From Candidatus Kaiserbacteria bacterium (GTDB lineage: Bacteria > Patescibacteriota > Minisyncoccia > Phycocordibacterales > Phycocordibacteraceae), in contig JAPLWI010000008.1 in NCBI GenBank assembly GCA_026396675.1, positions 42,883 through 106,882 on the forward strand: 64,000 bases of DNA, read 5' to 3'. A program made the position numbers and the translations under genes. Shown here piece after piece: positions 2,634-62,123 of this stretch. Each line of letters opens with the position of its first letter. The first letter of the stretch is position 1. The notes under the pieces are model-generated. The model saw nothing but the letters and a program-made list of their open reading frames with translations, had not been told where the DNA came from and did not search any database.

Positions 2634-4384
2634 ACCCCATTAGAAATCTGATTTCTAATGGGGTGAATAAAGAATTGCGGGAACGACTTACGCGTATTCA
2701 GAACATTCCAGTTCTTGAACGTTTCAACGAACGCATTCGCGCTTTTTCTCCGAGCGATCGTATTATGTTTTATATTCTCGCGACCCTAGTCGGCATCGCC
2801 TCGCTTACAGGCCTTTATGCTCTTGAACAATCTCTCCTCAAACAAGTGCCCGCATACGGCGGAACGCTCGTTGAGGGCGAAGTAGGGAGTCCGCGATTTA
2901 TAAATCCACTTCTCGCTATCAGCGACGCCGACCGTGACCTTTCGGCACTCGCCTATGCCGGACTTATGGGCCTCTCTGGTTCTGGGAACCTAGTCCCAGT
3001 ACTCGCGAGCGACTATACTGTTTCAGCTGATGGAAAAGTGTATTCGTTTACCCTGCGTCCGAACGCTAAATTTTCAGACGGAGTGCCAGTTACAGCGCAG
3101 GATGTTGTCTTCACAATACAAAAAGCGCAGGATTCTGCACTAAAGAGTCCTGAATATGCGAACTGGTCGGGAATTATTGTTGAAGCTGTTGATTCGCATG
3201 TCGTGCGCTTCACTCTCCAAAAAGCGTATGCCCCTTTCCTAGGACTCACAACTTTAGGGATCCTACCTGCACACTTATGGCAGAACATATCAAACGAAGA
3301 ATTTGCATTCTCTACGCTCGAGACAAACCCAGTTGGAGCAGGGCCCTTCCGAGTAACGAGCGTTTCGCGTAATGCATCAGGACTCATACAGAGTGTATCG
3401 CTTACACAGAACTCTTTTTATGCGCTTGGACGACCGTATCTTGACGGCATTCGTTTTGACTTCTATTCACGAACAGAAGATCTCGTCGGTGCTCTTGCTG
3501 GCGGCGGTATAGAGAGCGCGTATGACATCCATTCAAATGGAACGACAGTAACCGCTCCGTATGCACGTGTCTTCGGCGTGTTCTGGAATCCAAGCGAAAA
3601 ACAAGTGTACGCTCGCGCGGAGGTTCGTAAGGCGCTCTCGCTCGCGCTCGACCGAAAAACAATTGCCGATACGGTGCTTGGCGGTTATGCGACAGCAATT
3701 ATGGGTCCTGTGCCACCAGGAAGAAAGGTGGAGCAGGTTCCAATTCCGCAATCGAGTAATCCGACGGAAACGGCTGCGGGAATACTTAAGGCAGCCGGAT
3801 GGACATATGACAGTTCTGCGCGCATTTGGAAAAATATAGGTGCAAAACAAACAATCGATAGTATTACAATACGAACTTCAAATGTTCCTGAATTAAAAAA
3901 TGTGGCGAGTGCTGTGAAAGCGGATTGGGAAAAACTCGGTATTCCAGTTACAATCGAGCTCTACGAGCCGGGCGATCTCTCACAAAATGTAATCCGTCCG
4001 CGTAAGTATGAAGCGCTTCTCTACGGTATGGTCATCGGCCGCGATCAAGACCTGTATGCTTTCTGGGATTCACAAGAGCGCAACGACCCTGGTTTGAATA
4101 TTGCGCTTTATGCGAACAAGACAATTGATAATCTCCTCGAAGATGCACGTAGTTCTACGAGCGAACAAGAACGAACTGCAGATCTTCAGAAAATCGAGAA
4201 TCTTGTCGCCGCAGATTACCCCGCCGCATTCTTGTATGCACCGAATTTCGTCTACGCAGTGCCGAATGATCTACAGGGTGTTGAATTGCCACAAATTATA
4301 ACGCCGTCCGATCGTTTCGCTTCAGTCGCATCGTGGTATCGCGTGACCGATAAAGTGTGGCCATTTTTAGTAAATAAAAAATAA
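2630..4384 (+). CDS. ABC transporter substrate-binding protein, family 5 (oligopeptide/dipeptide/nickel-type), 584 aa
   Basis: An N-terminal TM/signal anchor is followed by a fold typical of OppA/DppA family-5 solute-binding proteins (…YTVSADGKVYSFTLRPNAKFSDGVPVTAQDVVFTIQKAQD…). Confidence 0.65.
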   Translation: MNPIRNLISNGVNKELRERLTRIQNIPVLERFNERIRAFSPSDRIMFYILATLVGIASLTGLYALEQSLLKQVPAYGGTLVEGEVGSPRFINPLLAISDADRDLSALAYAGLMGLSGSGNLVPVLASDYTVSADGKVYSFTLRPNAKFSDGVPVTAQDVVFTIQKAQDSALKSPEYANWSGIIVEAVDSHVVRFTLQKAYAPFLGLTTLGILPAHLWQNISNEEFAFSTLETNPVGAGPFRVTSVSRNASGLIQSVSLTQNSFYALGRPYLDGIRFDFYSRTEDLVGALAGGGIESAYDIHSNGTTVTAPYARVFGVFWNPSEKQVYARAEVRKALSLALDRKTIADTVLGGYATAIMGPVPPGRKVEQVPIPQSSNPTETAAGILKAAGWTYDSSARIWKNIGAKQTIDSITIRTSNVPELKNVASAVKADWEKLGIPVTIELYEPGDLSQNVIRPRKYEALLYGMVIGRDQDLYAFWDSQERNDPGLNIALYANKTIDNLLEDARSSTSEQERTADLQKIENLVAADYPAAFLYAPNFVYAVPNDLQGVELPQIITPSDRFASVASWYRVTDKVWPFLVNKK

Positions 4385-4395
4385 TTAACTTCTTT

Positions 4396-6360
4396 ATGAA
4401 TTCAGCACCAGCCCCGGCACCGAGTCCGGCAAATCCGAGTCCTTCGCGCGATGAACATTCTTTCTCTCGTCCTTCTTCTCCGCGGCGTTTTGACAAAAGA
4501 GGAAGTCGTCCACTTGGACAACGCCCGCCCGTAAGTTCGCCTCGCCGAGGATTTAGCGAGGCGAGTAGGAAGGGGCCACGCCCAGGAGGCGCAACGCGTC
4601 GAATTCAACGAATTCTTCGTCGCCCATCGGCGAACCCGACACATCGGATTAAGAGCGCCGATTACTTCCCTTCTCAGCCGAGCGCGACAACGGTTCGCAT
4701 TATTCCGCTCGGCGGAGTAGAAGAAGTGGGGCGCAACATGATTGCCGTTGAGGTCGGTGCGACCGGCGACATTCTCGTTTTCGATGCAGGTTTTCAATTC
4801 GTTTCCGAAGATGTGTCTCCGGGCGTTGATTATATTCTCCCAAACACAAAGTATCTTGAGAAGAATGCCGAGCGAGTGAAGGGGGTCATCATTACGCACG
4901 GACACCTCGATCACATCGGCGGTATTCCTTTCACATTGCCGCGTTTCGGGAACCCTCCTGTATACACTCAGAATCTCACTTCAATAATGATTCAGAAACG
5001 GCAAGAGGAATATCCAGATATCCCGAAGCCAGAATTGATAATCGTTGAAATCGGCCAAACTGTAACTATCGGTAAGACGCGCGTAAAATTTTTCCCAGTT
5101 ACGCATTCAATTCCCGACTCCATGGGCGTGTCAATTGAAACGCCGCAAGGCAACGTGGTCATCACCGGTGACTTGAAACTTGAACACGATGACGGCATTC
5201 CTTCAGAACGCGAGGTAAAGACCTGGGGCGATATCGGCAAAGACAATAATATTTTCTTTATCGCCGATTCGACGAACGCCGAAAAAGACGGGTTCTCTAT
5301 TCCCGAGAAACGCGTCATTCAAACGTTGGAAGATATTGTGAAGACGGTTTCCGGACGCCTTATTATCGGCACTTTCGCTTCGCAATTTGAGCGCATGATT
5401 CATATCATAGAGATAGCGGAAAAATTGCATAAAAAAGTCGTTACTGAAGGTCGCTCCATCAAAACCAACCTTGAAATCGCAGAAAAAGTTGGGCTTTTGA
5501 AGATTAATAAAGATACTCTCATTCCCGCACAAGATATCGGGGACTATCCGCCAGATAAAATCGTCATTCTTTCAACCGGCGCACAGGGAGAAGAATTCGC
5601 CGCCTTGATGCGTATCGCAACCAAACAGCATAAATACATCATGCTTTCTGAACGCGACACGATTGTACTTTCATCATCGGTTATTCCGGGAAATGAGCTC
5701 AATGTGCAGAAATTGAAGGATAATCTCTACCGTCATGGCGTTACGCTTATCAATTATCGTTCGTCGGATGTTCACTCGACTGGCCATGGCAACACAGGCG
5801 AACTCGTGTGGATTAATAAACAGGTTCATCCGAAATTCTTTATGCCCTCTTACGGCTACCATTCAATGCTTCGTTGCCACGCGAAGGCCGTCGAGCAATC
5901 GGGATTCCCTCGAGAAAACATCGTCATTCCTGACAATGGCTTCGTCATCGACATTGAAGATGGTGAACGGATGAATGTACACAAGCAGAAAGTACCCTCC
6001 ACACCGATGGTTGTTGACGGATTCAATATCGGTGATATACAGGAAGTCGTAATTCGTGATCGCCAGTCACTCGCGAAGGATGGTATGTTCGTCATCATCG
6101 CGAGCGTCAATCTTAAGACCGGCAAATTGCGTAAGTCGCCTGATATTATCAGCCGCGGCTTTATTTATCTGCGCGAATCGCAGAATCTTCTAAACGAAGC
6201 GCGCATTCTCATCAAAAAAACAGTTGAGGATTCAACACGCAATATGAATCCGATTGATTTGGATTATGTAAAAAATAATCTGACTGATGTAATGGCGGGC
6301 TACCTCTTCAATCGCACCAACAAAGCCCCGATGGTGATTCCTGTCCTGATTGGGATGTAA
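4396..6360 (+). CDS. rnj: ribonuclease J (metallo-beta-lactamase / beta-CASP) with a ~100-aa Arg/Pro/Ser-rich N-terminal extension
   Basis: VRIIPLGGVEEVGRNMIAVE...GVIITHGHLDHIGGIPF (HxHxDH motif), followed by beta-CASP and C-terminal RNase J domains. Confidence 0.85.
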   Translation: MNSAPAPAPSPANPSPSRDEHSFSRPSSPRRFDKRGSRPLGQRPPVSSPRRGFSEASRKGPRPGGATRRIQRILRRPSANPTHRIKSADYFPSQPSATTVRIIPLGGVEEVGRNMIAVEVGATGDILVFDAGFQFVSEDVSPGVDYILPNTKYLEKNAERVKGVIITHGHLDHIGGIPFTLPRFGNPPVYTQNLTSIMIQKRQEEYPDIPKPELIIVEIGQTVTIGKTRVKFFPVTHSIPDSMGVSIETPQGNVVITGDLKLEHDDGIPSEREVKTWGDIGKDNNIFFIADSTNAEKDGFSIPEKRVIQTLEDIVKTVSGRLIIGTFASQFERMIHIIEIAEKLHKKVVTEGRSIKTNLEIAEKVGLLKINKDTLIPAQDIGDYPPDKIVILSTGAQGEEFAALMRIATKQHKYIMLSERDTIVLSSSVIPGNELNVQKLKDNLYRHGVTLINYRSSDVHSTGHGNTGELVWINKQVHPKFFMPSYGYHSMLRCHAKAVEQSGFPRENIVIPDNGFVIDIEDGERMNVHKQKVPSTPMVVDGFNIGDIQEVVIRDRQSLAKDGMFVIIASVNLKTGKLRKSPDIISRGFIYLRESQNLLNEARILIKKTVEDSTRNMNPIDLDYVKNNLTDVMAGYLFNRTNKAPMVIPVLIGM

Positions 6361-54450: not shown

Positions 54451-54735
54451 TTATTCGCCGAACAGTTCTGGGTGCGTACCAATTTCAGAGATAGTAACAA
54501 TCCCCGCTTCATCATTGCGTTTGTATATCAATAACAAGTTAAATCCCAAGTGACACTCTCTAAAACTCGCGAATTCCCCATGAAGTTGGTGGTCTTTAAA
54601 CCTCTCTGGAAGCGGATTCCCTTGCTCAAGACAATTAAGGACTGAATTGAAAACAGAAGAATTGAATGTGCCAGAATACCTTAATTTCTTTAAACGCCTT
54701 CGCGCCGAGATAGAAAGCGATACAGAATAGATCAT
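54451..54735 (-). CDS. yafQ: type II toxin, RelE/YafQ family mRNA interferase
   Basis: …KDHQLHGEFASFRECHLGFNLLLIYKRNDEAGIVTISEIGTHPELF follows the YafQ pattern (H.L.G…rEcHi…LLiY…vtl.ri.gtHselF). It overlaps the upstream dinJ-like gene by 4 nt. Confidence 0.75.
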   Translation of the reverse strand: MIYSVSLSISARRRLKKLRYSGTFNSSVFNSVLNCLEQGNPLPERFKDHQLHGEFASFRECHLGFNLLLIYKRNDEAGIVTISEIGTHPELFGE

Positions 54736-55016
54736 TGGAAGAATTCTTTCATTATCTCCTTCGCGGTATATCGTTTACCATGCTTCTCCGCGTATTCCGT
54801 TTCGCGAATAACGCGTGCTTCAAACTCGGGCGTGAAGCCATTTATTGTGCGTGGCGTAAACGGCATCGCCTTGTCTTGGACAACGCGAGAAAGGTACATA
54901 TTGATACCGGTCGAGAGATCGAATCCCATCTGCTTGAATACGCGCTGTGCGGCGAGTTTCGTCGCTTTGTCGGTCCGCACGTTCACCACTGCTTTTGCGA
55001 TTGTTTTGGTAGCCAT
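54732..55016 (-). CDS. dinJ: type II antitoxin, RelB/DinJ family, with a C-terminal extension (start taken at MATKTIAK)
   Basis: MATKTIAKAVVNVRTDKATKLAAQRVFKQMGFDLSTGINMYLSRVVQDKAMPF matches DinJ-family antitoxins. An extra ~40 aa follows. Confidence 0.7.
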   Translation of the reverse strand: MATKTIAKAVVNVRTDKATKLAAQRVFKQMGFDLSTGINMYLSRVVQDKAMPFTPRTINGFTPEFEARVIRETEYAEKHGKRYTAKEIMKEFFQ

Positions 55017-55024
55017 ACGGATAG

Positions 55025-55090
55025 TATACACATTGTATATACAAATGCAATCATACCTGTGCATAAGAAATAAAATGATTAAGGTATACA
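55025..55090. promoter_or_regulatory. operator-like TATACA / TGTATA half-site cluster in the dinJ-yafQ / xth divergent promoter region
   Basis: TATACA-CAT-TGTATA lies at 55025-55039, with a further TATACA at 55085-55090. The arrangement is typical of an autoregulated TA operator. Confidence 0.45.
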
Positions 55091-55099
55091 ATAGTTTCT

Positions 55100-55867
55100 A
55101 TGAAAATCGTCTCGTGGAATGTGAATGGATTGCGCTCGCTCGCAAAAAATGGCTATTGGGAAGCATTTTTGAAAGGCACGAAGCCGGACATATTCTGCCT
55201 TCAAGAGACGAAAGCGAGTCCTGAACAAGTGCCGGATGAGTTGCGCGAAGTTGCCGGATTTTCTTCTTTCTTCTCATCTTCGCAAACAAAAAAGGGTTAT
55301 AGCGGCGTCGCGCTTTATTCAAAAATCGAACCATTGTCCGTTATTTACGGTATGGGAATAAAAGAATTTGATCATGAAGGTCGGATTATCGGCGCAGAAT
55401 ACGAAGATTTTTGGCTCTTGAACGTCTACTTCCCTAATGGCGGAATGGGTCCTCATCGTCTCGACTACAAAATGCGTTTTTACGATGCCTTTCTTTCATT
55501 TGCAGAAAAATTACGGAAGAAAAAGCCAGTTATTTTTTGCGGCGATATCAATACCGCTCATGAAGAAATCGACCTTGCGAGACCAAAAGAAAATGAGGGG
55601 AATACTGGCTTTTTGCCTCAAGAACGTGCCTGGATCGATGAGGTTGTGAACGCCGGATATGTTGATTCATTTCGACATTCCAACCCACATCGGACAGGGG
55701 CATACACATGGTGGGATATGAAGTTTCGCGCTCGCGATAGAAATGCCGGATGGCGTTTTGATTACTTTTTTGTTGCAAATGAATTTTTAAAACGAATTAA
55801 AAAAGCGGAAATTCATAGCGAGATTTACGGCTCAGACCACTGCCCTATTTCCATCACTGTGTCATAA
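55100..55867 (+). CDS. xth: exodeoxyribonuclease III (AP endonuclease, EEP family)
   Basis: MKIVSWNVNGLRS…IFCLQETK…FCGDINTAHEEIDL…WWDMKFRARDRNAGWRFDYFFV…SDHCPISI matches ExoIII. Confidence 0.9.
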   Translation: MKIVSWNVNGLRSLAKNGYWEAFLKGTKPDIFCLQETKASPEQVPDELREVAGFSSFFSSSQTKKGYSGVALYSKIEPLSVIYGMGIKEFDHEGRIIGAEYEDFWLLNVYFPNGGMGPHRLDYKMRFYDAFLSFAEKLRKKKPVIFCGDINTAHEEIDLARPKENEGNTGFLPQERAWIDEVVNAGYVDSFRHSNPHRTGAYTWWDMKFRARDRNAGWRFDYFFVANEFLKRIKKAEIHSEIYGSDHCPISITVS

Positions 55868-56234: not shown

Positions 56235-57698
56235 CTAGCTCACTCCATGCTTTTTCATTATATGCTTTATTTCCTCATTTTCTTCAGCTTCCTTACGCTC
56301 TTCCCCTGCCTTTCCGAGCCTTTGTAACTCATTTTCAGGCATTTCAAGTAGTTCGTCAGTTCGCTTATCGAGATATTCCTCTGTATTTAAATCGGCGTTA
56401 TCAAGAACTTCTTCGAGAAGGGCATTTAATAAATAGCCGATCTTCGGCCCCGGTTTCTCGTGGAACTTTTCCATTATGCGATTTCCATCCGTTTTGAGCC
56501 TAGAAACAGAAATTGGATCATGGAGGGCTTGTTCTACCAATGCCTTATACTTACGAAACCGAAATGGTTGCTCTTTTGGTCGACCCATCCCGATACGGTC
56601 GCACATTCTAAGATTAAGCAGATCCCAGATATTCTCCTCGCCGACGTTGGTTATCATACGACGCACTGCTGATAGAGTAATTTGATCGGGATCCGAAAAA
56701 AACATGTGCCAGCGGACCAATTTTACGACCTTATCAATTGTTTCGCGTGGGAAGCGTAGATTTTCAAGGATTTTCTTTGTTTCGCGTGAACCAACAACTT
56801 CATGGCCATGGAAGCTCCAATCATCTTTTTCATCTGAATGACGGCGCGTTTCTGTCTTTGATATATCATGGAATAGGGCAGCGAGACGAATTTCCAAATT
56901 AAAATTTTTATCCGCCGCATGCTGTAAGGAACGAACAAGATGTTCAAAAACATCGTAACTATGTGCTTGATTCTGTCCTATACCAAAAGAATCGGCTAGT
57001 TTCGGAATTATGAATTCAAGGATACCAAGCCGTTGCGCCAGAATAAGAGCATTCATCGGCTGACTTGATTCTAATATTCTTACAAATTCGTCTCGAATCC
57101 TTTCACATGAAACATGGCCTAAATGCTTGCTATTTTCGCTTATCGCCATTGCTGTATCACCATCTATTCCAAAATTTAACTCGGCAACAAAGCGAACGGC
57201 GCGTAAGAGACGCAAAGCATCCTCTTCAAAACGTTCACTCGGATTCCCGACTGCGCGAACTATTTTGTCCTTTATGTCCTTTTGACCTTCATAGGGATCT
57301 ATAATTTGTCCTTTTGATTCATCGAGGGCGATGGCGTTGATCGTGAAGTCCCTCCGAGCGAGATCTTCAAGAAGGGAAGTGCCGAATTCAACTTTATCCG
57401 GCCTACGTTTATCGGAATATTTGGATTCAATACGGTAAGGAGTGACTTCAACAATAGCCAGTCGTTCGTCTTCAGAATTCGTCTTTACTCCAACCGTCCC
57501 GTAGTCATTTTCATAAAAGGAGTCGGGGAATACTGCCTGGATTTGTTCTGGCGTTGCGTTGGTAGTAATATCCCAGTCCTTTGGTTCCTTTCCGACAAGG
57601 AGATCGCGAACGCACCCGCCAACAAGATATGCCTCGAATCCGGCATTTCGCAGTTTCGCGGAGACGGTCGAAATTTCTTTTGGGATGCGATACGACAT
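56235..57698 (-). CDS. cca: CCA-adding enzyme / tRNA nucleotidyltransferase with HD domain
   Basis: GGCVRDLLVGKEPKDWDITT… is the polymerase-beta nucleotidyltransferase head. The C-terminal HD domain reads …RLAALFHDISK…. Confidence 0.85.
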   Translation of the reverse strand: MSYRIPKEISTVSAKLRNAGFEAYLVGGCVRDLLVGKEPKDWDITTNATPEQIQAVFPDSFYENDYGTVGVKTNSEDERLAIVEVTPYRIESKYSDKRRPDKVEFGTSLLEDLARRDFTINAIALDESKGQIIDPYEGQKDIKDKIVRAVGNPSERFEEDALRLLRAVRFVAELNFGIDGDTAMAISENSKHLGHVSCERIRDEFVRILESSQPMNALILAQRLGILEFIIPKLADSFGIGQNQAHSYDVFEHLVRSLQHAADKNFNLEIRLAALFHDISKTETRRHSDEKDDWSFHGHEVVGSRETKKILENLRFPRETIDKVVKLVRWHMFFSDPDQITLSAVRRMITNVGEENIWDLLNLRMCDRIGMGRPKEQPFRFRKYKALVEQALHDPISVSRLKTDGNRIMEKFHEKPGPKIGYLLNALLEEVLDNADLNTEEYLDKRTDELLEMPENELQRLGKAGEERKEAEENEEIKHIMKKHGVS

Positions 57699-57758
57699 AA
57701 ATGCATCGTAGCATAACGCATCTGGTTTTTTACTGCCCGTGCCGTAGTATGGAGATAC

Positions 57759-57830
57759 GCCCCGATGGTGAAATGGATATCACGACTGACTTCGGATCAG
57801 TTATTCTGGGTTCGAATCCTGGTCGGGGCA
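57759..57830 (+). tRNA. tRNA-Arg (anticodon TCG)
   Basis: The acceptor stem is GCCCCGA/TCGGGGC and the D-stem GTGA/TCAC. The anticodon arm ACTGA-CTTCGGA-TCAGT gives anticodon UCG. The T-arm is CTGGG-TTCGAAT-CCTGG, with discriminator A and no encoded CCA. Confidence 0.8.
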
Positions 57831-57876
57831 CAAACTGGTAAACAGATGGAAGTGCGTGGTACTATGTCGCCTAGAA

Positions 57877-57950
57877 GCGGGCATGGTTCAGTGGTAGAAC
57901 GCGTCCTTGCCAAGGACGAGACGGGAGTCCGATTCTCCCTGCCCGCACCA
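57877..57950 (+). tRNA. tRNA-Gly (anticodon GCC), CCA encoded
   Basis: Read as GCGGGCA-TG-GTTC-AGTGGTA-GAAC-G-CGTCC-TTGCCAA-GGACG-AGAC-GGGAG-TCCGATT-CTCCC-TGCCCGC-A-CCA. The T-loop has C at position 55. Confidence 0.75.
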
Positions 57951-58117
57951 CTTCGTCACTAGGAAACTCGGGACTACGCGGTGCACAGCACTAGAAAATG
58001 TGATTTCAAAACGACTTTTGCTCTGTGTATAACATGGGGGATACTGGGGATAAAGGACAGGGGACTTTTGGAGAAGTCCGTGAAATAATAAGCAAGTAAG
58101 CCGTATCTATAAAAGGC

Positions 58118-58513
58118 ATGAATATTTCTTCTTTCACACGAAAAGAGGTTGGGAATCTGGGCGAGAGTGTTGCCTGCGAGTATCTTAGACGACATGGTTT
58201 TAAGATCTTGGATCGCAATATCGCACGAAAAACAGGGGAGCTAGATGTCGTCGCGAAGAAAGAAGATACGCTTCATTTCGTTGAAGTGAAGACGATTCTT
58301 GCTGACGAATTTCCTCAAACAGAGAAGGTGAAAGATGATTACGATCCTTCATTAAACTTACACGAAGCGAAAGTGCGGAAAGTTGCAAGAACTGGCGAGT
58401 GGTATGTCCTTGAGAAAAAATGGGAGGGGGAGTGGCAGGTGGATGGCTGTCTCGTGTGGCTTCGCCGGAGAGACGGAATGGCGAGGGTTTCGTATTTGCC
58501 GCAAATCGTTTAA
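58118..58513 (+). CDS. yraN: YraN / UPF0102 family endonuclease
   Basis: …LGESVACEYLRRHGFKILDRNIARKTGELDVVAKKEDTLHFVEVKT… matches the UPF0102 signature. Confidence 0.75.
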   Translation: MNISSFTRKEVGNLGESVACEYLRRHGFKILDRNIARKTGELDVVAKKEDTLHFVEVKTILADEFPQTEKVKDDYDPSLNLHEAKVRKVARTGEWYVLEKKWEGEWQVDGCLVWLRRRDGMARVSYLPQIV

Positions 58514-58571
58514 GAATGGTAATGTGAAGCGAAGCGAAAACGGGCTGTGCCCGCCGTAGCTTTAGCGAAGG

Positions 58572-58642
58572 CGGGGCGTAGTATACCGGTAGTACGCTTG
58601 CTTTGGGAGCAAGAAGACCGAGTCCAATTCTCGGCGCCCCGA
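58572..58642 (+). tRNA. tRNA-Pro (anticodon TGG), slightly atypical T-loop
   Basis: The acceptor stem is CGGGGCG/CGCCCCG and the D-stem GTA/TAC. The anticodon arm CTTGC-TTTGGGA-GCAAG gives anticodon UGG. The T-arm is CCGAG-TCCAATT-CTCGG (C at position 55), with discriminator A. Confidence 0.6.
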
Positions 58643-58645
58643 CAA

Positions 58646-59758
58646 CTAAGGTAAATTCGCAGTTATGATCGATTCGAGTTCGGAAATTCGTGGAGCGAAG
58701 TCGGCGACAGCGGTTGCAGGTGATTCGGCGAGAAGAAGATCGAGTGCTTGGCCGGTCTCGCTCGCGTATTCGCCTCGGATATAAGAGGCAGTAATAGCAT
58801 CAAGAGAACGCGTGTCGGTCGTTCCGGTGATTGTGCTCGTTGTGATGGTTCCTACAAGATTCCTAAAAACGTCAGCGACGCCGCCGCCCGAGGAACCCTC
58901 TTGCGCTGCGGCGGAGCCACCGAGCGCAAGAACGTCAATTGTGTTCGTTCCGAAAGTGAGAACATCTTTCACCGAACCGAACACGATCGTAGGGAAGAGT
59001 CCATTCGTTATCTGGCTTGCTTCAAGAAATTGTGAGCCATACGAAGCGATAACAACAGGTGTGTCTTTGGGTGGCGTCGTTGAAAGCGTCATATACGGAA
59101 ATATGGAAGGAAGTTTGCTGTCGGTAGCGGATTTCGTAATAGCGAGAAAAGCGAAATCATATTCTCCGGTTCCGCTCGGCGTCGTTTTTGTTAAAACGGT
59201 CGGATTCGCCTTGAGCCACGCTGGCGAGATGTATGCAAGTGCAGCATTGTAACTATCGGTGGCTGGACTGCCAGAACGGATAGTGCAAGAAACGTCGCGA
59301 TCCGCGAGAAGAAAATATTGCGCGACATGCGCGTTGGTAAGGATGATTCCTTTTGGATCAATTATAACGCCGCTGCCTGAAATGGAGTGAATACCGCTTC
59401 TTGCAGGGGCGTAGCAGATGATGTTTACAAGTGCAGACCGTAATATCAACGCGGAAGTATCTAACGCCGCATTCAGAGCGGCAATCGATTCAGCAGTTGG
59501 CGGTGTTACGGCAACCGCCGCGGGAGTGGATGACGCCGGTATCTTTTTTGAAACGGAAGAATGTGTTTGCACTGAAGTGGTTGCTCCGACGCTTTTGGTC
59601 GAAGCCACGACCACTTCTGGCGTCGTTGGTGAAGCGATGGGAATAATGATAGGAATGCGCGAGACAGTTGTACTGCCTGAAAAGACAGAAATAAAAATGC
59701 CGAGCGCGAGAGCGGCTACAATGCCGAGATATGGCGAAAAGCGGGACACTATATACAC
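58646..59758 (-). CDS. membrane-anchored trypsin-like (S1 family) serine protease, 370 aa
   Basis: An N-terminal TM and a Thr/Ser/Pro/Ala linker precede …SGSGVIIDPKGIILTNAHV (His), the Asp region and …EGSSGGGVAD (Ser, GDSGG-like). Confidence 0.6.
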   Translation of the reverse strand: MYIVSRFSPYLGIVAALALGIFISVFSGSTTVSRIPIIIPIASPTTPEVVVASTKSVGATTSVQTHSSVSKKIPASSTPAAVAVTPPTAESIAALNAALDTSALILRSALVNIICYAPARSGIHSISGSGVIIDPKGIILTNAHVAQYFLLADRDVSCTIRSGSPATDSYNAALAYISPAWLKANPTVLTKTTPSGTGEYDFAFLAITKSATDSKLPSIFPYMTLSTTPPKDTPVVIASYGSQFLEASQITNGLFPTIVFGSVKDVLTFGTNTIDVLALGGSAAAQEGSSGGGVADVFRNLVGTITTSTITGTTDTRSLDAITASYIRGEYASETGQALDLLLAESPATAVADFAPRISELESIITANLP

Positions 59759-59840
59759 GTTAACTTAAAAAGTGCCCGAAATACAGCAACAGTGGATATC
59801 GAACTGGCGTATATATACTGTACAGATATATAATCTAAAG

Positions 59841-60524
59841 ATGCATACTCTGTCTATCCGAGAGAGAGCTCTGGCGTTAAGAAAGAGCGGTTTTTCTTAT
59901 ACATACATTTCATCTAAAACGGGGCTCTCAAAAAGTACTTTGAGTGGATGGCTCACGGAAATACCCTATACTCCCAACAAAGAAACAATAGCCGCATTCG
60001 GCAAAGCAAGAGCCGCAGCCAGTGCTCGTCGAGCTGAGTTGCGGCAAAAATCAATCCAAGAAATCAGAAAAACGGCGACCAAAGACATCGGGGAAGTAAG
60101 CAAAAGAGATCTTTTTGTGTTTGGGCTAGGTCTCTATTTGGGAGAAGGGTGCAAGTCAAATGGACAGGTTCGTGTAGTAAATTCAGATCCGAGTATCATC
60201 CAAGCTGCTATTACATGGTTCAAGATGCTCGGTGTAAGAAAAGACCAAATTAAGATTCGCTTGCATTTATATCCGGATAACAACATCCGGCAATGTTTGC
60301 AATTTTGGTCTCGTACTACTAGCATTCCATTATCCCAATTCCAAAAGCCCCAGATCGACAATCGTGTCGGTAAAAAAGCGAAAAAAATGCGTAAACTTCC
60401 TTTTGGTACCGTACAACTGGTTGTTCTGAGCAGGGGACGAAAGGAATATGGGGTTCTCTTCTTCCGGAAAATTCAACTCTGGAATGAAGTGGTTCTGTCG
60501 GAAATTAGAGCGGGCGTGGTCTAA
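59841..60524 (+). CDS. HTH + LAGLIDADG-like homing-endonuclease-family protein (start taken at MHTLSIRE; the ORF track starts at 59772)
   Basis: The N-terminal HTH is SGFSYTYISSKTGLSKSTLSGWL. A single LAGLIDADG-type motif LFVFGLGLYLGEG is present. The 3' end overlaps the tRNA-Gly(TCC) gene by 15 nt. Confidence 0.45.
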   Translation: MHTLSIRERALALRKSGFSYTYISSKTGLSKSTLSGWLTEIPYTPNKETIAAFGKARAAASARRAELRQKSIQEIRKTATKDIGEVSKRDLFVFGLGLYLGEGCKSNGQVRVVNSDPSIIQAAITWFKMLGVRKDQIKIRLHLYPDNNIRQCLQFWSRTTSIPLSQFQKPQIDNRVGKKAKKMRKLPFGTVQLVVLSRGRKEYGVLFFRKIQLWNEVVLSEIRAGVV

Positions 60525-60581
60525 CGGCTATGACGGCTGCCTTCCAAGCAGTCAGCGCGGGTTCGACTCCCGCCGCCCGCA
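60510..60581 (+). tRNA. tRNA-Gly (anticodon TCC)
   Basis: The acceptor stem is GCGGGCG/CGCCCGC and the D-stem GTC/GAC. The anticodon arm GCTGC-CTTCCAA-GCAGT gives anticodon UCC. The T-arm is GCGGG-TTCGACT-CCCGC, with discriminator A. Confidence 0.75.
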
Positions 60582-60652
60582 CAAATTGATTTTTTATAAA
60601 GAAAGAGTATTCTTCCGCCAGAAGTTCAAATTGAAAGAAAGGAGGCAACAAA

Positions 60653-60904
60653 ATGGACGATGATAGAATCATAGAAATGAAGGTGGTTAAAGTTAAAGAC
60701 GGCGATTTTGCTGGTTCAGAAATGCTTATTAAGCCTATTGCCGTAGGAAAGGTGGTTCGTGACTTATCTAACGTATTCTATAGCAATAGTATCCCTCCGC
60801 CGCCGAAGGAGGAATTAGTTAAATTGGTAGAAATGGCAGTCGATCAACAGAATCGGTGTTCCGATGATGTAGCAACATTCTGCGGTATGAAAAAAGATGG
60901 ATAG
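60653..60904 (+). CDS. small hypothetical protein (83 aa)
   Basis: A strong SD GGAGG is upstream. MDDDRIIEMKVVKVKDGDFAGSEMLIKPIAVGKVVRDLSNVFYSNSIPPPPKEELVKLVEMAVDQQNRCSDDVATFCGMKKDG. Confidence 0.4.
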   Translation: MDDDRIIEMKVVKVKDGDFAGSEMLIKPIAVGKVVRDLSNVFYSNSIPPPPKEELVKLVEMAVDQQNRCSDDVATFCGMKKDG

Positions 60905-60977
60905 ATTCTGACTGATTGTCGGATGAGGCGCGGGATCCAATCCTGCGCCTTTTTTGATTCGGGAGTACCATATCCTT

Positions 60978-62123
60978 ATGGAGCCACTTGCCGCACAAAT
61001 ACGACCCGTAAAGATAGAAGATGTCGTTGGTCAGGAACACCTTGTGGGAGAAGGAAAGCCCTTGCGCGTTGCGGTAGAGAAGAAACACAAATTTTCTTTT
61101 ATTCTCTGGGGACCGCCCGGGACAGGAAAGACGACCATCGCGCGCATTTACGCGCGCGCGCTTGATGCGGAACTTTTTGAACTCTCAGCGGTCTCTGCCG
61201 GGAAGGACGACATTCGTAAAATCATAGAGAAAAAAGTTGAGAGACAAAAAGTTTTATTTTTGGATGAGATTCATCGATTTAATAAAGCGCAACAGGATTT
61301 TCTTTTGCCCTATGTTGAAAGCGGAGAATTAACGCTTGTCGGCGCGACGACCGAAAATCCATCGTTTGAAATTATTGCGCCGCTTCTCTCGCGTTGCCGC
61401 GTCTTCGTGCTTGAACCACTCTCTGAAGAAGCTCTGCGAATAATAGTGAAGAGTACGAAATTAAAAATAAACAAAGACGCCTTCGACTGGCTCTTGGGCT
61501 ACGCGAGCGGAGACGCGCGCAAGGCGCTTGGAATGATAGAGGGCGCGCAGAGTTTATATGGGAAAATAACAGCCGATACGTTAAACAGGGCGCTAGAATC
61601 GCCGCACCTGCGCTACGACAAAAAAGGCGAAGAACATTACGACACCATTAGTGCATTTATTAAAAGCATGCGCGCTTCGCAACCAGATGCCGCGCTGTAT
61701 TATCTCGCACGAATGGTTGAGGCAGGAGAGGACCCGCTTTTTATTGCACGGCGAATGGTTATATTTGCTTCAGAAGATGTAGGCCTCGCGCAACCGACAG
61801 CGTTAGTTGTCGCAAATGCAGTTTTCCGTGCATGCGAAACCATTGGCTATCCAGAATGTTCCATCAATCTCGCACATGGCGTCGCCTATCTCGCGCAAGC
61901 GAAGAAAAATCGCTCTGCTTATGATGCGTTACGAGCCGCGCAAAAAGATGTTCGCGATTATGGCAATCTACCTATACCGAAAAAGATTCGAAATCCGGAG
62001 ACAAAATTGATGAAAGAACTTGATTATGGGAAAGGGTACGAAAAGTACGATACTGAAAGTTATTTACCAGATAAATTGAAGAAAAAGAAATATCTGATAC
62101 CATCTACAAATGAGAAAGTGTGA
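60978..62123 (+). CDS. rarA: replication-associated recombination protein A (AAA+ ATPase, MgsA/RarA/WRNIP family)
   Basis: …[46 protein letters not shown]…VLFLDEIHRFNKAQQD… matches RarA. Confidence 0.9.
   Translation: MEPLAAQIRPVKIEDVVGQEHLVGEGKPLRVAVEKKHKFSFILWGPPGTGKTTIARIYARALDAELFELSAVSAGKDDIRKIIEKKVERQKVLFLDEIHRFNKAQQDFLLPYVESGELTLVGATTENPSFEIIAPLLSRCRVFVLEPLSEEALRIIVKSTKLKINKDAFDWLLGYASGDARKALGMIEGAQSLYGKITADTLNRALESPHLRYDKKGEEHYDTISAFIKSMRASQPDAALYYLARMVEAGEDPLFIARRMVIFASEDVGLAQPTALVVANAVFRACETIGYPECSINLAHGVAYLAQAKKNRSAYDALRAAQKDVRDYGNLPIPKKIRNPETKLMKELDYGKGYEKYDTESYLPDKLKKKKYLIPSTNEKV

Follow-up and report, generated by a model that had tools for sequence, protein, structure and literature searches.

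The free-standing homing endonuclease gene segB of phage T4 resides in a tRNA gene cluster. Among the LAGLIDADG proteins, some that are encoded within introns assist splicing as maturases and commonly lose the catalytic acid. WhiA, a bacterial transcription factor derived from this superfamily, consists of two degenerate LAGLIDADG domains that have lost their catalytic acids and a C-terminal helix-turn-helix (HTH) domain; to our knowledge, it is universally conserved in its lineages. SegB is discussed in PMC13096335. For Patescibacteria, rRNA insertions that contain LAGLIDADG homing endonucleases have been described, as have group I introns of tRNAs with homing endonuclease genes (PMC11270868, PMC13011429). 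Here we describe a gene in a 64,000-nt stretch of Candidatus Kaiserbacteria DNA (assembly GCA_026396675.1, contig JAPLWI010000008.1, positions 42,883 to 106,882; referred to as the window) that encodes an HTH-LAGLIDADG protein and ends inside the gene for tRNA-Gly(UCC). No description of the family to which this gene belongs was found in a full-text literature search, and PMC11270868 and PMC13011429 do not contain one. The findings point to a large unannotated family as a selfish homing element that uses a previously undescribed hiding place, the 5' flank of tRNA genes.

An HTH-LAGLIDADG gene running into tRNA-Gly(UCC)

The locus comprises the following features, given in window coordinates:

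59790..60509, + strand, segment of about 720 nt found in filled (gene-carrying) and absent from empty alleles, left boundary approximate
59798..59804, + strand, ATCGAAC motif near the left end of the inserted segment
59829..59834, + strand, TATAAT -10 box, 6 nt before the ATG
59841..60524, + strand, HTH-LAGLIDADG endonuclease gene, 227 aa plus stop
59847..59999, + strand, N-terminal helix-turn-helix of the homeodomain/transposase-like HTH_23 type (aa 3-53)
60096..60521, + strand, single LAGLIDADG domain (aa 86-227)
60510..60582 (ARAGORN) or 60510-60581 (Rfam tRNA model, 66.4 bits), + strand, tRNA-Gly(UCC)

The longest open reading frame (ORF) as listed spans 59772..60524 (+). Alignment with 30 homologs, all of which start at the same methionine (MH..SIRE...), places the true start at the ATG at 59841. 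The TAA stop codon (60522-60524) lies 15 nt into tRNA-Gly(UCC), and the first 15 nt of the tRNA gene double as the final four codons and the stop of the endonuclease ORF. The last residues of the protein, A-G-V-V, are the translated acceptor stem GCGGGCGTGGTC; the C-terminal tails AGVV, ADVV, AGLV, KRD, and MRA of homologs likewise are translated tRNA acceptor stems. An initial annotation, made from the letters of the window, had proposed a free-standing gene of about 230 codons with an N-terminal HTH and a single LAGLIDADG motif that terminates 15 nt inside the tRNA gene, and the domain limits (HTH at aa 3-53, motif at aa 91-103) and the tRNA start at 60510, given by both ARAGORN and Rfam, agree with this description.

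When the window protein was searched singly against Pfam, NCBIfam, and PHROGs, nothing but sub-threshold HTH matches in Pfam was obtained, and PF00961, PF03161, and PF14528 gave no match at E<=10. Across 23 diverse family members, HTH_23 matched 20 (best E=5.5e-8) and PF14528 touched just two (E=0.067). Neither Pfam nor NCBIfam holds a curated model for the HTH-LAGLIDADG family, and a protein of a Candidatus Kaiserbacteria metagenome-assembled genome (MAG) that is 100% identical to the window protein (P0001) is annotated as 'hypothetical protein'. A profile built from 31 orthologs matched the second LAGLIDADG domain of I-DmoI (E=3e-5), so that the assignment to this superfamily made by the initial annotation holds at the level of profiles, although the Pfam LAGLIDADG models do not detect the protein. 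In this match, GLGLYLGEGxK aligns with GLYVAEGDK of I-DmoI, equating Glu102 with E117 and Lys105 with K120. The LAGLIDADG motif LFVFGLGLYLGEG corresponds to residues 91-103 (60111-60149), and Glu102 and Lys105 are listed as its motif residues. Y99, E102, and G103 are invariant in 78/78 family members from all clades, and K105 is kept in 75/78; the motif with its catalytic Glu, the absence of which from homologs would have spoken against an endonuclease, is thus universal in the set.

An AlphaFold (AF2) model with a pLDDT of 83 contains a three-helix HTH (residues 6-15, 20-27, and 31-38), a 29-residue helix, and an alpha/beta domain. The core fold of the LAGLIDADG superfamily (alpha-beta-beta-alpha-beta-beta-alpha) is present, its third and fourth strands being separated by an insertion of about 45 aa. 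Among the Kaiserbacteria orthologs, the ratio of nonsynonymous to synonymous substitution rates (dN/dS) is 0.05-0.10, indicating purifying selection. Taken together, the conserved Glu/Lys pair, the I-DmoI profile match, and the HTH identify the window protein as a divergent LAGLIDADG enzyme that carries an additional HTH and whose active-site signature is intact; cleavage activity is predicted for it. PADLOC gave a weak 'HEase' match alone, which is in keeping with the enzyme fold, and membership in a defense system was rejected.

Rfam at E<=1 found tRNAs only, and neither an intron ribozyme nor any other RNA, in the interval 57500-61200. The tRNA gene is uninterrupted. Residence in a self-splicing intron or an intein was therefore rejected, and the gene is free-standing. 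On reading of the sequence, no direct repeat or duplicated tRNA 5' end was seen upstream of the gene.

A family linked to tRNA 5' flanks

A scan with protein-motif patterns over one genome per GTDB species yielded 80 loci across Patescibacteria; as they were found via protein motifs, these loci do not allow prevalence to be estimated. A same-strand tRNA begins close to the stop, which falls within -81 to +59 nt of the tRNA start, in 68 loci with full-length copies and in one with a truncated copy. The rest comprises six copies with frameshifts or stops in which the match still reaches the tRNA, two that are truncated by a contig end, and four with an opposite-strand tRNA. Decayed copies (6/80) are expected from the life cycle of a homing endonuclease gene. 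Common overlap classes are -15 (14 loci plus the window), -10 (nine loci), and -1/0 (five loci). When a hidden Markov model (HMM) of the family was run against every ORF in the examined sequences, it returned 109 ORF pieces, of which 98 abut a tRNA gene, 93 on the same and five on the opposite strand; each of the remaining 11 is either the upstream half of a split copy or a copy truncated by the end of a contig. Since the juxtaposition recurs in essentially every relative examined, it is not due to chance.

In a neighbor-joining (NJ) tree of 78 proteins, the clades correspond exactly to the downstream tRNA, which is Gly-UCC, Gly-GCC, Ile-UAU, or Met-CAU, with single cases at Lys-CUU, Gln-UUG, Ala-GGC, and Ile-GAU; all trees reported here are single-gene NJ trees. 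A frameshifted copy lies at tRNA Arg-UCG (L076), and in several genomes there are two copies that lie at different tRNAs, for example L040 and L069, which come from one MAG. Thus, going beyond the initial annotation, the link to tRNA 5' flanks holds for the family as a whole, and each clade is specific for an isoacceptor. A HMMER scan of 1.84 billion cluster representatives identified 2,723 clusters (50% identity) at E<=1e-10 and 4,874 at E<=1e-3.

Duplication and fusion is the usual evolutionary route of LAGLIDADG enzymes. Distant two-unit relatives, in which HTH-LAGLIDADG occurs twice, each unit with YWCEG and both Glu residues kept, are found in the cultured species Actinomadura atramentaria and A. 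parmotrematis (WP_019629257, WP_220163469). Their genes immediately precede tRNA-Gln(UUG), before glmU-prs:

L113, 3001-4683, two-unit gene; 4727-4801, tRNA-Gln
L114, 3001-4599, two-unit gene; 4680-4751, tRNA-Gln

The tRNA linkage therefore reaches beyond Patescibacteria, to experimentally usable organisms. Members linked to Ile-UAU also occur in MAGs labeled 'uncultured Gammaproteobacteria' (L051, L053, L054, L057), reflecting either mislabeled bins or a wider host range. In a minority of loci, the tRNA at the 3' end of the gene is on the opposite strand (L050, L060, L062, L071, L115 (1497-3227), and L116 (483-2213)); in L115 and L116 the ORF runs through an antisense tRNA-Gln.

Putative expression signals are shared as well. 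The ATCGAAC motif is kept in all Kaiserbacteria-type filled alleles and may be a -35-like element or an operator; its motif class ([TC]CG[AT]AC/TTG[AT]AC) occurs within 70 nt (35-50 nt) upstream of 46/71 family genes versus 16/251 control ORFs. The TATAAT-N6-ATG layout of the window is identical in L001-L004, L024, L084, L087, L088, and L091, and in the Gly-UCC clade 35/42 genes have a TAnnnT hexamer that ends 5-8 nt ahead of the start codon, compared to about 30% of other ORFs. From this spacing the endonuclease mRNA is predicted to be leaderless. A consensus scanner found neither a consensus sigma-70 promoter (full -35/-10 pair) nor an intrinsic terminator on the + strand. Where the ORF ends 10-59 nt before the tRNA, a TGnTATAAT-like box is located between the two or overlaps the stop (for example, gctATGGTATAAtt in L053, L054, and L065, and gctATGATATAAtt in L074), and we infer that the tRNA of these lineages retains its own promoter. 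No good -10 box is left before the tRNA in the -15 overlap class, including the window (TGGTTCTGT); here the tRNA is probably transcribed through the endonuclease gene and then released by ribonuclease P (RNase P).

Filled and empty sites

Occupancy of the tRNA-Gly(UCC) site was determined in a metagenome set of 32 contigs chosen by a 39-nt stretch of the Kaiserbacteria tRNA-Gly(UCC). These contigs have in common the order CCA-adding enzyme, tRNA-Arg, tRNA-Gly(gcc), UPF0102 (YraN), tRNA-Pro, trypsin-like protease (-), [gene], tRNA-Gly(tcc), MgsA/RarA. The site is filled in 9/32 contigs, all with intact copies, and empty in 21/32, while 2/32 were assigned to neither class. The presence/absence polymorphism that the initial annotation had suggested looking for therefore exists, with the same tRNA and the same synteny. 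In the 21 empty alleles, 22-114 nt separate the start of the protease ORF from the tRNA +1, and no gene remnants remain in these spacers. Of ten empty sites inspected, most have a conserved extended -10 box, TGGTATTCT, at 9-17 nt before the tRNA +1 (AAAAATGGTATTCTCGCACTAY|GCGG); in a few it is shifted or accompanied by extra sequence. Filled Kaiserbacteria-type sites do not have this box but the arrangement ...ATCGAAC...TATATAAT-N6-ATG, after which the ORF runs into the tRNA. Two sequence variants of tRNA-Gly(UCC) occur, both in filled and in empty alleles, and the differences between the alleles are upstream of +1 only.

Filled and empty alleles are interleaved on the tree of the neighboring protease, where the window groups with the empty L081, L085, L100, and L101. 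Gene trees and host markers are broadly congruent with one clear discordance, L005, in which the host markers are 77-91% identical to those of the Kaiserbacteria group and the endonuclease gene is 55-58% identical to theirs; within this group, the endonuclease genes are 75-88% identical among themselves. This gap suggests that the L005 gene is a separate acquisition. Three loci (L096, L110, and L111) carry a different insertion of 82 nt exactly between the conserved tRNA promoter motif and the tRNA-Gly(tcc) +1, that is, at the same spot as the endonuclease gene.

A second site of this kind lies in the tRNA cluster that the initial annotation had placed 2-3 kb upstream, and which was found 1.9-2.75 kb upstream of the endonuclease gene:

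57759-57831, tRNA-Arg(tcg)
57832..57876, + strand, tRNA-Arg(tcg)-tRNA-Gly(gcc) spacer of 45 nt, empty site for the Gly(GCC)-specific paralog
57877-57950, tRNA-Gly(gcc)
58572-58643, tRNA-Pro(tgg)

The spacer is occupied by a family gene in L006, L013, L014, and L105 and is empty, at 41-50 nt, in the window, L004, L005, and L011; L015 is empty as well. Alignment of L014 (filled) to its relative L015 (empty) places the right edge of the insertion at the tRNA +1. In L010 and L024, a paralog is directly upstream of tRNA-Gly(gcc), and a tRNA-Arg was not detected upstream of it. The spacer measures 1.0-1.2 kb in L003 (619-1636), L017 (1067-2267), and L084 (about 1.2 kb); even the family HMM detected no member in these three, and the site there appears to be filled by other content.

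When the four tRNAs of the cluster (window 57759-58643 and 60510-60582) were compared to those of L002-L005, L082, L099, and L101, they differed erratically by 0-19 nt, and the nearest relative of the window switches from one tRNA to the next. This suggests that individual tRNA genes are often recombined or replaced among the Kaiserbacteria relatives. As all four tRNAs behave in this way, co-conversion of the tRNA with the gene was dropped as a line of evidence.

Several further features of the neighborhood were recorded. The window tRNA-Gly(tcc) has no encoded 3' CCA, which some relatives do encode, and a gene for a CCA-adding enzyme (56235-57698, -) heads the tRNA cluster. The stretch between tRNA-Gly(tcc) and MgsA/RarA (window 60583-60953) ranges from 15 nt to about 2 kb among relatives, independent of the endonuclease gene; in the window it contains an 83-aa ORF (60653-60904) with no Pfam or PADLOC match. 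Translations read by eye suggest a toxin-antitoxin pair of two small overlapping ORFs (94 and 119 aa; 54451-55091, -) and a 255-aa ORF resembling exonuclease III (55100-55867, +).

Interpretation and comparison with known systems

Based on these results, we consider it fairly likely, with a probability of roughly 0.6, that the gene is an active LAGLIDADG homing endonuclease gene of the free-standing kind, at home in the 5' flank of tRNA genes, with each clade tuned to one tRNA gene; its cleavage activity is a prediction. The protein would dimerize via the LAGLIDADG helix, as do single-domain enzymes like I-CreI, and the two HTH domains would extend the DNA contact. The dimer would recognize and cut the unoccupied allele, consisting of the tRNA promoter and the 5' part of the tRNA gene, and repair off the occupied allele would copy the gene into the cut site. 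As the insertion takes the place of the left half of the target site, the occupied allele would be immune. The cost to the host could be low, as the gene is co-oriented with the tRNA and would have its own TATAAT promoter and a leaderless mRNA. Either gene and tRNA would share a transcript, from which RNase P would trim the gene as a long 5' leader, or the tRNA promoter would be embedded in the last codons of the gene. Where the stop codon is inside the tRNA, as in the window, RNase P cleavage would remove it and leave a non-stop mRNA, which may hold nuclease levels low.

Some observations weigh against this interpretation. At the empty junction, no clear pseudo-palindromic target is found, nor anything beyond the anticodon stem-loop. 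The dN/dS values match the low level of housekeeping genes, and for the most part the protein tree agrees with host markers; both are compatible with long vertical residence or a host-beneficial role. Dynamics of loss only would explain much of the patchiness, and gain is supported by L005 as the single clear discordance. Within the reach of a pattern search of IMG/VR, viral contigs yielded no relatives, so that no vector is evident, and phage origin was rejected on this ground.

The initial annotation had left the choice between a homing site and a domesticated DNA-binding protein, and the latter is the main rival. The protein would then be no selfish nuclease but a LAGLIDADG/HTH protein like WhiA that regulates, protects, or helps to express the adjoining tRNA gene, for example by autoregulating a shared promoter and thereby tuning one isoacceptor. 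The very low dN/dS and the mostly host-congruent tree are what such a role would leave behind. The gene is dispensable, however: 21 of 30 close relatives with the same tRNA do without it, mostly with an ordinary promoter in its place, and decayed copies exist. Moreover, family members keep the catalytic Glu without exception and the Lys with few exceptions, residues that WhiA has lost, and one LAGLIDADG domain with an N-terminal HTH stands against the two domains and C-terminal HTH of WhiA. We therefore regard domestication as unlikely; mobile homing is the better fit of the two possibilities named in the initial annotation.

A maturase-like role, in which the protein binds a long mRNA-tRNA precursor and helps 5' processing or folding of its own tRNA, would draw on the well-established precedent of LAGLIDADG maturases; the overlap or abutment of ORF and tRNA makes a shared transcript probable, and RNA recognition would yield the isoacceptor specificity. 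Such a precursor is unnecessary in the many lineages with a separate tRNA promoter past or inside the ORF end, and relatives without the gene process the same tRNA. As the catalytic acid commonly lost in maturases is invariant here and the N-terminal domain is a DNA-type HTH, this role appears improbable. Finally, in the compact genomes of Patescibacteria genes often overlap, and the arrangement could be a by-product of compaction and conserved synteny involving an ordinary HTH regulator unrelated to the tRNA. The adjacency recurs at eight tRNA species in varied neighborhoods and phyla, including Actinomadura, and insertion or deletion occurs precisely at the tRNA +1, which makes this explanation very improbable indeed. 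Homing into the tRNA 5' flank thus remains our preferred interpretation.

As a tentative and rather doubtful extension, the elements may drive horizontal replacement of the adjacent tRNA. Cutting and repair from foreign alleles would amount to a gene drive carrying the tRNA allele and its promoter, and the element would be hard to lose once the promoter of the tRNA had been replaced. Such a drive would account for the erratic tRNA mosaic in close Kaiserbacteria relatives and for long persistence under strong purifying selection.

If homing at tRNA genes is correct, homing endonuclease genes would have, in addition to self-splicing introns and inteins, a third 'phenotypically silent' niche in the tRNA 5' flank or leader, where the insertion is absorbed by the normal 5' processing of the tRNA or by its promoter architecture. 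A functional hypothesis would also be at hand for about 2,700-4,900 protein clusters now labeled 'hypothetical', 'XRE regulator', or 'transposase', and attention is drawn to systematic overlaps of ORFs with tRNAs, which may be handled wrongly by annotation pipelines. The predicted natural HTH-LAGLIDADG nucleases, with targets that can be guessed from the adjoining tRNA, would be of interest for meganuclease engineering. The hypothesis is testable in culture, as Actinomadura species carry the two-domain relative by tRNA-Gln.

Among known systems, intron-encoded enzymes of the I-DmoI/I-CreI type resemble the window protein in sequence and fold. The window gene is outside any intron or intein, and its product has an extra N-terminal HTH, the 29-residue helix, and the core insertion of about 45 aa, and is too divergent for PF00961, PF03161, and PF14528. 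Unlike WhiA, it has one LAGLIDADG domain, an N-terminal HTH, an invariant Glu, and a patchy distribution, and assignment to a WhiA-like class was rejected on these grounds. With the Patescibacterial elements of PMC11270868 and PMC13011429 it shares the phylum, the targeting of conserved RNA genes and, for the rRNA cases, the enzyme superfamily; those elements are self-splicing or excised insertions inside the RNA gene, whereas the window gene is in the 5' flank of an uninterrupted tRNA. Like T4 SegB, it is a free-standing nuclease gene beside highly conserved tRNA genes, present or absent between relatives, with a presumed target in or beside the neighboring conserved gene. In contrast to SegB, a GIY-YIG enzyme of a phage, it encodes a LAGLIDADG protein on cellular chromosomes, with no viral relatives within the IMG/VR pattern search, and belongs to a family of thousands of proteins that, the opposite-strand minority apart, is strictly 5' to the tRNA on the same strand, often overlaps it, and shows clade-to-isoacceptor specificity.
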